DNA of 53,670 nt from Deltaproteobacteria bacterium (GTDB lineage: Bacteria; Desulfobacterota; BSN033; UBA1163): contig JBBIRM010000005.1 of the NCBI GenBank assembly GCA_037441765.1, forward strand, positions 1,520 through 55,189, written 5' to 3'. Below are positions 42,931 to 50,804 of the stretch, one piece after another. Both the position numbers and the translations under genes were made by a program. Each line of letters opens with the position of its first letter. Position 1 is the first letter of the stretch. The notes beneath the pieces are model-generated. The model saw only the letters and a list, made by a program, of their open reading frames with translations, did no database searches and was not told the DNA's origin.

Positions 42931-43767
42931 TCAACTTTCTTTACCCTTTCTTATAAGGACCCTCTTCTCATCAGGGATAGGAGGCGGAGGGGTTTCTCCA
43001 ATGATCTTTCTCACGGCACTAAATCGAGGAGGACAAACTTCAAGACAGGTTCCACATTTGATACATTTCTCTTGGTCAATGACATGGATCAGGTTCTTCC
43101 CACTTAAAATCGCATCCACAGGACATCTTCGGGCACAGGCCATACAGGCCTGACACTTCTCAGGGTCGATATAGTAGTAGGGTAATTCCCGGAATAGGGT
43201 TTCGATCTCCTCTTTCATAAACAGATCATTCCACTTTTGTGGATCCCGAATCCGGTTGAACAGTTTCTGTTTTTTAACCATCTTGATGTAAGGAACCAGT
43301 TTCGTCACTTCATTGAGTTTGGTCTTTAATTGGTCAGGCTCCAACCCCTCTTTTAGTCCAAGAGGCCCTATCTCCCTAATCTTTTTAGTAAAATCGCTGA
43401 CTGTCTCTGCAAAACGGGACCCTTCGGCAGATGACATAAATTCAACCCTTAATCGATCCGGGTTTAGACCGATATATTCCATTATTTTTCTACATAAGAG
43501 GACCATATTTAGGGCATAGTAATTTCCCTGTGTCACATATTTACATTCATCTAAACGGCAACCCGCAATGTATACCCCATCCATTTGATTATAGAAAGAC
43601 CTAAGGACAAAGGCCAAATCTACCCTTCCTGTGCACATGACCCTGACCAGTTTGATTTCACTTGGATACTGTAGTCTGGAAACTCCAGCTAAATCAGCAG
43701 CCCCGTATCCTCACCAATTGCATACGAAGCCTAATATCTTAGGTTTCACTTTAAGTGCTCTTCCCAT
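42931..43767 (-). CDS. bamF: MvhD-like domain fused to a 2x[4Fe-4S] ferredoxin domain, selenocysteine-containing (BamF-like)
   Basis: Extending the track ORF upstream gives MGRALKVKPKILGFVCNW-TGA-GYGAADLAGVSRLQYPSEIKLVRVMCTGRVD. The TGA (43711-43713) aligns with the Cys of the MvhD CNWC motif. SD GAGGTG precedes ATG 43767. The C-terminal ferredoxin domain has CQACMACARRCP and CIKCGTCLEVCP. Confidence 0.8.
43672..43691 (-). promoter_or_regulatory. SECIS-like hairpin of the bamF-like gene
   Basis: The mRNA reads UAGCUGGA-GUU-UCCAG(A)CUA: 8 bp with a bulged A and a GUU loop, starting 19 nt after the UGA. Confidence 0.55.
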
Positions 43768-43824
43768 CGATATTTCACCTCTAAATGATCACATTCATCA
43801 TCAAAATAGGTAGACATAGGAGTA

Positions 43825-48773: not shown

Positions 48774-48815
48774 CTTGGTTCCACCCTTTTAATTTTATCT
48801 CTTTTTTCCCCAATA

Positions 48816-50804
48816 CTACTTGGATGGAGAGGTCTCGTGATTGGTCAGAATGCCCCTTTGTAGAAAGTCCTCCGTCACATAATCTAACCTTAACCGATTC
48901 AAATTCTCCTTTGTAGGAATTCCCCTCTCATCCCATCCCTTAAACCGATAATACTCCTCTAAGAGCTTTGCTTCATACTCAGGAAATCTTTTCTTCCAAT
49001 GATCCTCGGGAGGACGTTCGTCTTCCCTCTTTAAGCCTCTTCTAATATTGACCGCCCGAACTAAGTTTCGATTTCTGCTGGCTATCGTCCACAATTCATT
49101 CTCATCTATATCCATCCCGCTTGCATGGGAGATGATAATGGGTAGATTGTGGATGTGATAGGGAGGTTTTATAGGAAAGGATGATAGTCCTGCACAGATT
49201 CCAATGGAATCATCGATATAGTGCATGATCTCCTGCCAGTCGACAAGCTCGCAGACTAAATCAATGGTAGGATAAAAGGGAAAAGAAGTTCCAGGTTCTC
49301 CCCATTCTAAGATAAATCTTTTAAACCTCTCCTCTTTTCCGGTTGGAATATGAATCCAATCCTTCACAAACTCTTCCCTCTCTTCTCTCATTGAAAATGG
49401 CGCCTGGGGAATCTGACCTTCTATCTGGGTGATGTTGATCTTCTCTCCTGTTGACCACATCAGATAGTAGATGGGATTCGTGACTCCCAATTTGATTGGT
49501 ACCTGTTCATGTTTTTTGATGGTATTGTGATCATAAGCCTCTGCTCCCTTCCCAATCTTTCTTGCTGCCCAGTAAACTCCGTCGGCCAAAACCTCTCCAA
49601 TGCCTTCCCTCCTTACAATTCTATCGAGGAGCCAGTTAAACCTCCCTTCAATATCCTCAGGCATCCCTTTCAGATCATCATCAGTGAGAATGCCTGCCTC
49701 ATAAAGTTCCAGAGCAAAGGCCAAAACCTGAGGTGTGGTAAATCCATCAACTCCATAATGTTGAGCCCGGGCAGCAATCTTTAAACCAAATTCGAGGTCA
49801 TCTACCATAGCAGCCATCGTATAGGTAAGTTTTGAGAAACATTTCATGATGTAAGGGGGATGTCCTGGAAGTTGAATGATTCCTGCACATCGTACAGGGC
49901 AATTGTAGCAACTGATTAATCGTCTCCGTGCCTTCTCCAATGCATCTGTCCACATCTTTTCAACTTCTTTGTTCCAGAAGCCTTTTCTTCGATGTCGGGC
50001 ATGCCCCCATGCAAAACTAATTGTATGCCACTCCTCATCATGTAAGGCCATCTCCTGTGGAGAACCAATTCGGGCTAAGATGGGCGGGACCCCTGGAAGG
50101 GGATTATTCAACCTGTGCTCTATGTATTTAAGGATTTCATTGCATTGATCGATCAGTTCATTGGGTCGCGCAATATTGAGGTCTTTCGTTCCTCGAACCG
50201 CTATGGCCTTTAACTTTTTGTCTCCCATAATTGCCCCTAATCCCAATCGACTTGCACTTCCTCGGTGGGTCTCGATAGAGGCAAAATAGACTCTATTCTC
50301 TCCAGCAAGCCCAATTGCCATCACCTGAGCCCTGGGTTCTTTCAATTCCTCTTTAATCATCTCAGCGGTCTCATAGGTGCTTTTACCCTGAAGGTGGGTC
50401 GCATCCCTTATCTCCACTTTATCATTATTTATCCAAAGGTAGACCCATTGGGGAGATTTCCCACGAATAATGACCTTATCATAACCTGCGAATTTCAACT
50501 CGGGTGCCCAAAATCCTCCCACCATAGAGAATGCCATCAACAGGGTCTGTGGAGAAATGGAAGATATAATGGTCCGATTAGCCCCGGGCACTGGAGTACC
50601 ACCTAATAGGCCACTGCTAAAGATCAGGAGGTTATCCGGAGAAAAGGGGCCTATCTCTGGAGAAACCCTGTCCCATAATATTTTTGCATTTGTCCCAAGA
50701 CCTCCCAAATATAGTTCAGTCATCCGCTGATCAGTGCTGACTCGCTCAATACTTCCCTTAGAGAGGTCAACCTCTAAGTTATACCCAGTCTCTGCATACC
50801 TCAT
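48816..50804 (-). CDS. bamB: Tungsten/molybdopterin aldehyde:ferredoxin-oxidoreductase-family protein, BamB-like
   Basis: AOR-family N-terminus (MRYAETGYNLEVDLSKGSIERV ... YLGGLGTNAKILWD), Fe-S motif LISCYNCPVRC and an AOR C-terminal domain. 662 aa. Its context (Fd, HdrD, HdrA-Sec, MvhD-Sec) matches the bamBCDEF order. Confidence 0.7.
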   Translation of the reverse strand: MRYAETGYNLEVDLSKGSIERVSTDQRMTELYLGGLGTNAKILWDRVSPEIGPFSPDNLLIFSSGLLGGTPVPGANRTIISSISPQTLLMAFSMVGGFWAPELKFAGYDKVIIRGKSPQWVYLWINNDKVEIRDATHLQGKSTYETAEMIKEELKEPRAQVMAIGLAGENRVYFASIETHRGSASRLGLGAIMGDKKLKAIAVRGTKDLNIARPNELIDQCNEILKYIEHRLNNPLPGVPPILARIGSPQEMALHDEEWHTISFAWGHARHRRKGFWNKEVEKMWTDALEKARRRLISCYNCPVRCAGIIQLPGHPPYIMKCFSKLTYTMAAMVDDLEFGLKIAARAQHYGVDGFTTPQVLAFALELYEAGILTDDDLKGMPEDIEGRFNWLLDRIVRREGIGEVLADGVYWAARKIGKGAEAYDHNTIKKHEQVPIKLGVTNPIYYLMWSTGEKINITQIEGQIPQAPFSMREEREEFVKDWIHIPTGKEERFKRFILEWGEPGTSFPFYPTIDLVCELVDWQEIMHYIDDSIGICAGLSSFPIKPPYHIHNLPIIISHASGMDIDENELWTIASRNRNLVRAVNIRRGLKREDERPPEDHWKKRFPEYEAKLLEEYYRFKGWDERGIPTKENLNRLRLDYVTEDFLQRGILTNHETSPSK

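Follow-up and report, generated by a model that had tools for sequence, protein, structure and literature searches.

Anaerobic degradation of aromatics has its bottleneck in the reduction of benzoyl-CoA, a step for which bamB is used as a field marker. In Geobacter metallireducens, class II benzoyl-CoA reductase is a Bam[(BC)2DEFGHI]2 complex, as revealed by cryo-electron microscopy (10.64898/2026.04.10.717634). In this complex, BamE is an HdrA-type bifurcating unit, BamD is the high-potential output, and BamF is an adaptor whose winged-helix end touches BamI; BamGHI constitute a HydBC-type module for confurcation, fed by NADH and by reduced ferredoxin, the latter being accepted at a C-terminal ferredoxin-like domain of BamH (10.64898/2026.04.10.717634). 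Here, we analyzed a related locus in a 53,670-nucleotide (nt) stretch of DNA, termed the window, from contig C5 (JBBIRM010000005.1, positions 1,520 to 55,189) of assembly GCA_037441765.1, whose host is probably an uncultured Syntrophales-like bacterium. We propose that five genes at positions 42931 to 50804 very likely encode a genuine class II benzoyl-CoA/aryl-CoA reductase core. The enzyme is predicted to be ATP independent, to contain tungsten and selenocysteine (Sec), and to be a compact form without the BamGHI module. Downstream, the same string of genes encodes a membrane ETF:(methyl)menaquinone oxidoreductase (EMO) and an electron-transferring flavoprotein (ETF).

The bamBCDEF genes and the active site of BamB

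The five genes are co-directional on the minus strand and separated by spacers of 42 to 91 nt. The initial annotation had matched them to bamB-C-D-E-F in order and size; their coordinates, lengths, and Pfam domains agree with this claim, and the assignment held for each subunit taken separately. The 662-aa BamB (48816 to 50804), the putative catalytic subunit with a tungsten-bis-metallopterin and a [4Fe-4S] cluster, starts with MRYAETGY, contains CYNCPVRC, and matches AFOR_N (E value of 4e-70) and AFOR_C (2.5e-57). NCBIfam has no BamB-specific model, and its generic AOR model matched BamB below the cutoff. Comparison with all PDB sequences gave 1,012 bits to BamB of G. metallireducens (4Z3W_A) over residues 1 to 654, and at most 196 bits, mostly in the N-terminal half, to the other AOR structures (AOR, FOR, and WOR5). 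A MAFFT alignment gave the window BamB 66% identity with Geobacter BamB, compared with 31% for another AOR of the same genome.

We then built a maximum likelihood tree of 91 sequences (a quick search with SH-aLRT support, without bootstraps), composed of BamB from 80 related loci, which are those most similar to the window BamB, together with Geobacter BamB and, from the window genome, three BamB-like proteins and seven other AORs. The BamB clade was separated from these seven AORs with 100% SH-aLRT support. The window BamB was placed in an 80-row group (support of 92) with Geobacter BamB and every copy followed by bamCDEF, and so inside the clade where the initial annotation had expected it. 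Its nearest relatives, at 89 to 91% identity, come from metagenome-assembled genomes of uncultured Syntrophaceae and Thermodesulfobacteriota. A collection of species-representative genomes contained at least 557 confirmed relatives of BamB, and as a family member this BamB is ordinary.

BamB is distinguished from other AORs by Cys322, a protein ligand to tungsten, and by invariant Glu251, His255, Glu257, and His260 (PMC12096430). Among AOR members, a ligand of the Cys322 type is otherwise found only in YdhV, and the four other residues first bind Zn and then form a proton conduit, with His260 and Glu251 directed toward C3/C4 of the ring (PMC12096430). All four are the same in the window protein as in Geobacter (motif SPQEMALHDEEWH), Cys322 lies within the motif YIMKCFSKL, and the [4Fe-4S] ligands Cys299, Cys302, Cys306, and Cys534 are conserved. 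The active-site check proposed with the initial annotation thus found the tungsten ligand and each of the four residues in place. Among operon-linked BamB proteins from other genomes, Glu251, Glu257, His260, and Cys322 were present in 79/79 and His255 in 60/79.

We looked for further copies by tblastn with the window proteins and found that the window carries the only complete bamBCDEF set of the assembly (2.97 Mb in 278 contigs, ∼94% complete). Two orphan BamB paralogues, both without bamC, are encoded elsewhere. The first (C123:6371-8329, 63% identity) stands before genes for a thiolase, two acyl-CoA dehydrogenases, and a 3-hydroxyacyl-CoA dehydrogenase, and the second (C25:88-2211, 707 aa, 57% identity) adjoins chaperone genes. 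One of the pair has His255 replaced by Gly and His260 by Leu, the other is without the Glu251 segment, and both keep Cys322. Both branch at the base of the BamB clade, and their residues suggest that they probably have a different substrate or chemistry. Their partial loss of the proton relay makes the window copy the best candidate for the benzoyl-CoA reductase proper. A TGA in the C123 paralogue was considered as a Sec codon at the tungsten ligand and rejected, as it is the terminal stop codon. More generally, the genome holds at least 13 AOR-family genes in 3 Mb and many HdrA/MvhD-like pairs (contigs C82, C73, C159, C206, C178, and C68), and judged by its gene content its metabolism is unusually rich in tungsten enzymes and bifurcation.

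The initial annotation had found no dch, had, or oah gene and no CoA ligase gene in the window, which we confirm, as all genome-wide matches to these families are off contig C5. It had also named a lack of aromatic-degradation genes in the genome as evidence that would count against its assignment, and a genome-wide search found the opposite. Contig C26 carries had (TIGR03201, 486 bits for a cutoff of 339) and oah (TIGR03200, 549 bits for a cutoff of 464). A dch-like gene of the crotonase family lies directly downstream of oah (C26:14172-14891) and scored 185 bits with TIGR03189, whose cutoff is 292; this model may miss divergent dch enzymes of strict anaerobes. A member of the benzoate-CoA ligase family is encoded at C228:1827-3356 (TIGR02262, 407 bits for a cutoff of 375). 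Contig C26 also contains three to four acyl-CoA dehydrogenase genes, two short-chain dehydrogenase genes, and genes for a CoA ligase, a TRAP transporter, a GNAT protein, and another AOR.

The annotation had further held that the substrate was not established and could be something other than benzoyl-CoA. The substrate is still one that we infer, but the pathway genes and the BamB residues largely resolve the matter toward benzoyl-CoA or a very close analogue. An enzyme acting on hydroxy-, methyl-, or halo-benzoyl-CoA would be compatible with the 66% identity to the one characterized BamB, with a sub-clade distinct from that of Geobacter BamB, with the more than 20 homologues of AMP-forming CoA ligases in the genome, and with the several acyl-CoA dehydrogenases and the TRAP transporter on the had/oah contig. 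The same alternative includes an enzyme working mainly in reverse, making benzoyl-CoA out of cyclohexadienoyl-CoA while the cell ferments crotonate or cyclohexane carboxylate in the manner of Syntrophus, and the Geobacter enzyme is routinely assayed in this direction (10.64898/2026.04.10.717634). However, the ring-contacting and protonating residues of Geobacter BamB are all identical in the window BamB, residue changes sit in the orphan paralogues and not in the window copy, and the only complete bamBCDEF set occurs in a genome that has the lower benzoyl-CoA pathway and a benzoate-CoA ligase family member above the cutoff. We therefore regard another substrate or a mainly reverse reaction as quite unlikely and retain benzoyl-CoA reduction as the assigned function.

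Redox subunits, selenocysteine, and the ferredoxin domain of BamF

We then analyzed the subunits that would bring electrons to BamB. BamC (48231 to 48773, 180 aa) is a polyferredoxin with three predicted [4Fe-4S] clusters and the partner of BamB; its sole PDB match is BamC of G. metallireducens (4Z3W_E, 254 bits, residues 2 to 179). The bamC gene comes after bamB in all related loci that reach far enough, and the bamBCDEF order is conserved likewise.

BamD (47000 to 48154, 384 aa) is an HdrD/HdrBC-like protein with two cubane motifs and two CCG domains (Pfam CCG, twice, with an E value of 2.9e-39, and a dicluster motif), which also matches HdrC and HdrB structures. It shares 39% identity over 328 aa (E value of 2e-81) with the EMO encoded 5 kb downstream, in the cytoplasmic domain of that protein, and scores 224 bits with the corresponding domain of the mycobacterial enzyme MsEMO (PDB 9OJN). 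This 39% identity fits the view of BamD as a soluble copy of an ETF-reactive module. In Geobacter BamD, His230, Trp325, and Tyr356 occupy the heterodisulfide pocket (10.64898/2026.04.10.717634), and they correspond to His230, Trp322, and Tyr353 of the window protein. All 10 cysteines of the CCG domains are present, Cys152 included. Cys152 may be the ligand position that Geobacter changed, and it may preserve an intact distal noncubane cluster, unlike the [3Fe-4S] cluster of Geobacter BamD. It is kept in 9/9 clusters adjacent to EMO-etfBA, these nine loci not being phylogenetically independent, as well as in 2/24 other clusters with a long BamF and 3/15 clusters of the GHI type (see below for these types). 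Residues 152 and 153 are Cys-Cys in the window protein and Gly-Cys in most homologues.

BamE (43825 to 46908, 1,027 aa) contains two pyridine-nucleotide-disulfide oxidoreductase modules and a C-terminal Fer4 pair by Pfam. It matches five HdrA structures with 558 to 642 bits (the best being 8RVU_a, 642 bits) in three stretches, as expected for a fused double HdrA-like flavoprotein. Lys287 is aligned with the HdrA lysine at the flavin adenine dinucleotide (FAD), which is Lys280 at the bifurcating FAD of Geobacter BamE (10.64898/2026.04.10.717634).

Both BamE and BamF contain an in-frame TGA, at positions 46693 to 46695 (Sec72 of BamE) and 43711 to 43713 (Sec19 of BamF). Sec72 is aligned with the second Cys of the HdrA CSxC motif, and Sec19 has been reported at the same position in Geobacter BamF (10.64898/2026.04.10.717634). 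Alignment of related genes revealed TGA in 47/61 and Cys in 14/61 at the BamE position, and TGA in 42/51 and Cys in 8/51 at the BamF position. The genome encodes a tRNA-Sec with the anticodon TCA and a SelB scoring 380 bits (curated cutoff of 242). A hairpin 18 nt after the BamE UGA has 7 bp and an AGGU loop, with an energy that is not distinctive compared with shuffled sequences; the hairpin after the BamF UGA is stable (z = −2.8 compared with shuffled controls). The TGA/Cys alternation, together with tRNA-Sec and selB, bears out the earlier claim of Sec in both subunits, and we conclude from these features that the two codons are predicted to be read as Sec and are not accidental. In the list of open reading frames of the window made with translation table 11, BamE was split into frames of 71 and 933 aa and BamF was shortened to 235 aa. 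Public gene calls of BamF homologues show the same kind of defect: most have 235 to 260 aa, start past the Sec codon, and bear generic hydrogenase names.

Full-length BamF (42931 to 43767, 278 aa) starts at an ATG preceded by GAGGTG. It combines an MvhD-like [2Fe-2S] adaptor domain (Pfam FlpD/MvhD, residues 11 to 134, E value of 2.6e-45; 117 to 142 bits to MvhD structures over residues 8 to 143) with two Fer4 domains at residues 198 to 246, and its C terminus carries two CxxCxxCxxxC motifs, which predict a 2×[4Fe-4S] ferredoxin domain. A BamH encoded in a bamBCDEFGHI cluster has a C-terminal ferredoxin domain with a proline-rich tail, to which the last 85 aa of the window BamF are 61% identical (E value of 4e-35). 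The winged-helix end that binds BamI is absent from this BamF, which has the two ferredoxin motifs there and not the helix-turn-helix of short BamF proteins. We found no NuoEFG-like gene after bamF or elsewhere on the window contig. Since BamGHI is missing, the locus is not assigned to the eight-subunit type; on its gene content, we file it as a compact BamBCDEF variant. The initial annotation had not remarked on the absence of bamGHI, on the BamH origin of the ferredoxin domain of BamF, or on the ETF and EMO genes behind it.

We then examined how these two features are distributed, classifying the 47 loci in which bamF and the region downstream were readable. Long BamF proteins with two ferredoxin motifs (274 to 295 aa, and one of 251 aa) were found in 32 loci, with bamGHI following in 0/32, and short BamF proteins without a ferredoxin motif (mostly 253 to 270 aa) in 15 to 16 loci, with bamGHI following in all of them. 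The resulting 2:1 ratio describes a sample of the loci closest to the window BamB and is not a census. On the BamB tree, the two states require at least 11 changes among 49 rows, which indicates that the module has been exchanged repeatedly. A long BamF with TGA was found in 10/13 genomes of the family of the window genome and in essentially none of eight genomes from two other families of the class. MvhD-Fer4 fusions as such are widespread, with 4838 protein clusters at E ≤ 1e-20, the best 120 of which carry both domains throughout. Among the matches listed, the few clusters with a name bear no label other than "hydrogenase iron-sulfur subunit," and most are truncated where the Sec codon stands. 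A literature search found no paper describing a BamF with a ferredoxin domain or an enzyme without GHI, a weak result given that subscription papers were outside the search.

Could BamGHI come from another locus, such that a standard eight-subunit enzyme with confurcating input from NADH and ferredoxin forms as in Geobacter, by docking of a NuoEFG-like trio on BamF? The genome does encode five such trios (contigs C6, C19, C161, C23, and C10), and the NuoF-like protein of C6 is 65% identical to a bona fide BamH. There is also a precedent in strain NaphS2, where the enzyme was attributed jointly to a bamB-F cluster and to bamG-I genes clustered separately (PMC2988823). Yet the window BamF is without the winged helix that contacts BamI and bears the ferredoxin domain of BamH instead, in all 47 classified loci the type of BamF matches whether or not bamGHI is adjacent, and no trio adjoins a gene of the BamB, BamC, or BamF type. 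The C6 trio, considered as a hidden BamGHI, was rejected as a likely partner because its neighbors and the C-terminal tail of its NuoF-like protein differ. It precedes (C6:31554-38826) a gene for a 1,169-aa fusion protein, in which an indolepyruvate-type oxidoreductase alpha subunit is joined to ferredoxin domains and a GltD-like NAD(P)H module, and the NuoG-like protein of the trio has an additional C-terminal part resembling lipoyl/H-protein. The trio and the fusion look like a separate bifurcating 2-oxoacid oxidoreductase complex. Supply of BamGHI from another locus is thus possible but unlikely, and we consider an eight-subunit enzyme to be an unlikely explanation of the locus. By its domain content, the BamF of the compact enzyme may instead receive electrons from ferredoxin alone, an input mode that we favor by a modest margin.

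EMO, ETF, and other neighboring genes

The bamBCDEF genes are continued by four genes on the minus strand, with spacers of 1 to 50 nt from bamF to etfA. The nine genes from bamB to etfA hence form a single co-directional string with gaps of 1 to 91 nt, and the next gene beyond etfA is 309 nt away. A scan of positions 38000 to 51800 for terminators and promoters gave counts at or below the level of shuffled sequences and no site inside an intergenic gap, a result that neither splits nor proves an operon. An Rfam scan matched no family and so revealed no riboswitch for the molybdenum cofactor or a tungsten cofactor.

The second of the four genes (40374 to 42407) encodes a 677-aa protein that matches Mycolicibacterium EMO (9OJN) with 366 bits over its full length, membrane and cytoplasmic domains included. 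EMO proteins are defined by a NarI-like five-helix heme b domain, three His residues, and an HdrD-like domain with two cubane and two noncubane motifs (10.64898/2026.08.18.745454). The window protein has five hydrophobic helices in a NarI-like domain, two cubane motifs, and two CCG domains, and its His82, His220, and His238 are spaced like the heme ligands His87, His233, and His251 of Syntrophus EMO. With etfBA adjacent, these features assign it by sequence to the EMO family. The genes for the two ETF subunits follow: etfB (39529 to 40323, 264 aa, Pfam ETF with an E value of 1.5e-35) and etfA (38493 to 39497, 334 aa, Pfam ETF and ETF_alpha). The best PDB matches of EtfB are bifurcating ETFs, to which the ETF of Syntrophus is a nonbifurcating relative (10.64898/2026.08.18.745454). 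We found etfB, at 74 to 87% identity, downstream of bamF and EMO in nine related loci, which also contain etfA. The order bamBCDEF-(DUF3795)-EMO-etfBA occurs in seven Syntrophaceae-like and two Dehalococcoidales loci.

In Geobacter cells, ETF is bound beside the noncubane clusters of BamD, dienoyl-CoA reduces ETF in a reaction dependent on the class II reductase, and EMO is proposed to reoxidize ETF (10.64898/2026.04.10.717634). By analogy, we regard ETF and EMO as the probable exit for high-potential electrons from the window enzyme. Alternatively, these neighbors could serve only the glutaryl-CoA and cyclohexenoyl-CoA dehydrogenases of the lower pathway, with BamD using another acceptor. In Syntrophus, ETF and EMO indeed form a general route from acyl-CoA dehydrogenases to menaquinone (PMC8805022; 10.64898/2026.08.18.745454), and ∼22 of the 32 clusters with a long BamF have no EMO or etf gene directly downstream. 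What makes us judge this alternative improbable is the structural and enzymatic evidence for transfer from BamD to ETF in Geobacter (10.64898/2026.04.10.717634), the relation of BamD, as a soluble paralogue, to the domain where ETF docks on EMO, the tight string of nine genes with no terminator-like site between them, and the bamOP genes for ETF inside the bam cluster of Desulfococcus multivorans, whose products were found on all aromatic substrates (PMC5109826).

The first gene of the four, 1 nt past bamF (42438 to 42929), encodes a Cys-rich, 163-aa protein with a DUF3795 domain (Pfam, E value of 3.7e-19). Homologues with 71 to 82% identity are encoded in or beside the bam clusters of six related loci, and the protein may be a metal-binding accessory.

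Upstream of bamB, at a distance of 151 nt, lies a gene for a 146-aa GNAT acetyltransferase (50956 to 51396, minus strand, Pfam Acetyltransf_1). Of the 68 loci whose sequence extends far enough upstream, 29, drawn from several phyla, have a co-directional homologue no more than 900 nt upstream of bamB. Such recurrent association favors a function in the aromatic pathway over one in a toxin-antitoxin pair. One possibility is control of the CoA ligase by acetylation, as it occurs in Rhodopseudomonas. A further GNAT homologue is encoded on the had/oah contig C26, at positions 8587 to 9126.

More distant from the bam genes, a string on the minus strand (22860 to 35497) encodes SCO1, cytochrome c oxidase subunits I, III, and II (subunit II with a fused cytochrome c), heme O synthase, and a multiheme cytochrome. 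It also encodes a subunit of the molybdopterin family, an FeS subunit, an NrfD-type membrane subunit, and citrate synthase. From its gene content, we assign this string to an oxygen reductase and an ACIII-like respiratory module, in a genome that is otherwise like that of a strict anaerobe.

Proposed electron flow and comparison with known systems

We propose the following path for the compact enzyme. Benzoate would be activated by a CoA ligase, and reduced ferredoxin would dock on the C-terminal 2×[4Fe-4S] domain of BamF. Its electrons would reach the bifurcating FAD of BamE by way of the MvhD-type [2Fe-2S] cluster next to Sec19; this flavin, expected to lie near the redox pair Cys69-x-x-Sec72 and Lys287, would split the electron pair. 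The low-potential electron would cross the ferredoxin insert of BamE and then the three BamC clusters before reaching the [4Fe-4S] cluster of BamB and its tungsten cofactor, where benzoyl-CoA would be reduced to cyclohexa-1,5-diene-1-carbonyl-CoA with protons delivered via Glu251 and His260. The high-potential electron would leave through BamD to the ETF encoded in the same string and then via EMO to the (methyl)menaquinone pool, and the diene product would be processed by the dch, had, and oah gene products from another contig. A syntroph may use the enzyme forward or in reverse. Potentials of ∼−500 mV for ferredoxin, ∼−620 mV for benzoyl-CoA, and ∼+16 mV for ETF (10.64898/2026.04.10.717634) imply that ferredoxin alone is a thermodynamically sufficient donor. 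What the sequences show is that each subunit has its homologue, that catalytic and cofactor residues and the Sec codons are in place, that related loci keep the gene order, and that the genome encodes the downstream pathway; the substrate, ferredoxin as sole donor, ETF as acceptor, and the direction of flow are what we infer.

Taken further, the comparison of related loci raises the prospect that the class II reductase in nature is mainly a compact BamBCDEF enzyme with a single bifurcation. The ferredoxin-docking domain of BamH would have moved onto BamF, ferredoxin alone would feed the HdrA-type flavin, ETF and EMO would be a hard-wired exit, and BamGHI, put forward in 2026 as the key to ring reduction, would be an optional extra with a history of many gains or losses. 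We hold the arguments for and against this general model to be evenly balanced. Several points weigh against the assignment made here for the window locus. The score of the dch-like gene (185 bits) is well below the cutoff of 292, and the NuoEFG-like trios elsewhere in the genome could provide BamGHI. ETF and EMO also serve acyl-CoA dehydrogenases of the lower pathway, and their adjacency could reflect co-regulation and not coupling to BamD. The residue correspondences given for BamD, BamE, and BamF rest on alignments with HdrA and MvhD and on the numbering of the preprint. As to fine specificity, several BamB paralogues in other bacteria probably use substituted benzoyl-CoAs.

The locus suggests that an uncultured Syntrophales-like lineage carries a complete, selenium-dependent reductase that is mislabeled in public annotation. 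About two-thirds of the sampled related clusters are without the NADH input module and have a ferredoxin domain on BamF, which bears on the current model in which two coupled bifurcation modules provide the extreme reducing power. The string of bamBCDEF, EMO, and etfBA offers independent genomic support for ETF as the second acceptor, an idea that so far comes from one preprint and one organism. A compact enzyme of five subunits would, in addition, lend itself more easily to structural and heterologous studies.

Compared with the Bam complex of G. metallireducens (BamBC structures 4Z3W to 4Z40), the window locus shares the gene order B-C-D-E-F, the BamB motifs, a BamC that matches along its full length, an HdrD-like BamD with His230 and the Trp and Tyr residues, a fused double HdrA as BamE, and an MvhD-like BamF with Sec19, as well as ETF and EMO as the proposed high-potential exit. 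It differs by the lack of bamGHI and by a BamF that ends in a BamH-like 2×[4Fe-4S] domain, not in a winged helix. Further, the second residue of the BamE CxxC motif is Sec in the window protein and Cys62 in Geobacter, the window BamD keeps Cys152 and may retain an intact distal noncubane cluster, Geobacter BamD having a [3Fe-4S] cluster after a Cys-to-Ser change, and EMO and etfBA belong to the same gene string in the window. Two other bacteria have related arrangements. Strain NaphS2 (NPH_7171 to NPH_7176) has bamB-F without adjacent bamGHI, and several of the products are induced on benzoate (PMC2988823); D. multivorans has ETF genes in its bam cluster, with products detected on aromatics (PMC5109826). 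In both papers, however, separate bamGHI genes were assumed to complete the enzyme, a ferredoxin domain of BamF was not described, and no EMO gene was reported in the cluster.

With HdrABC-MvhAGD of methanogens, the predicted complex shares HdrA-, MvhD-, and HdrB/C-like subunits, the logic of flavin-based bifurcation, and a CxxC/U pair near FAD. Unlike in the methanogen enzyme, BamE fuses two HdrA units and BamD is a fused HdrBC-like protein with a filled heterodisulfide pocket; the low-potential acceptor would be a tungsten enzyme and not ferredoxin, and the proposed donor is ferredoxin and not hydrogen. Finally, the window EMO shares with the EMO of Syntrophus aciditrophicus and MsEMO (9OJN) both domains, the three His residues, two cubane and two CCG motifs, and adjacent etfBA genes. 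Whereas those stand by themselves or beside beta-oxidation genes, the window EMO gene comes immediately behind genes for a benzoyl-CoA reductase core.

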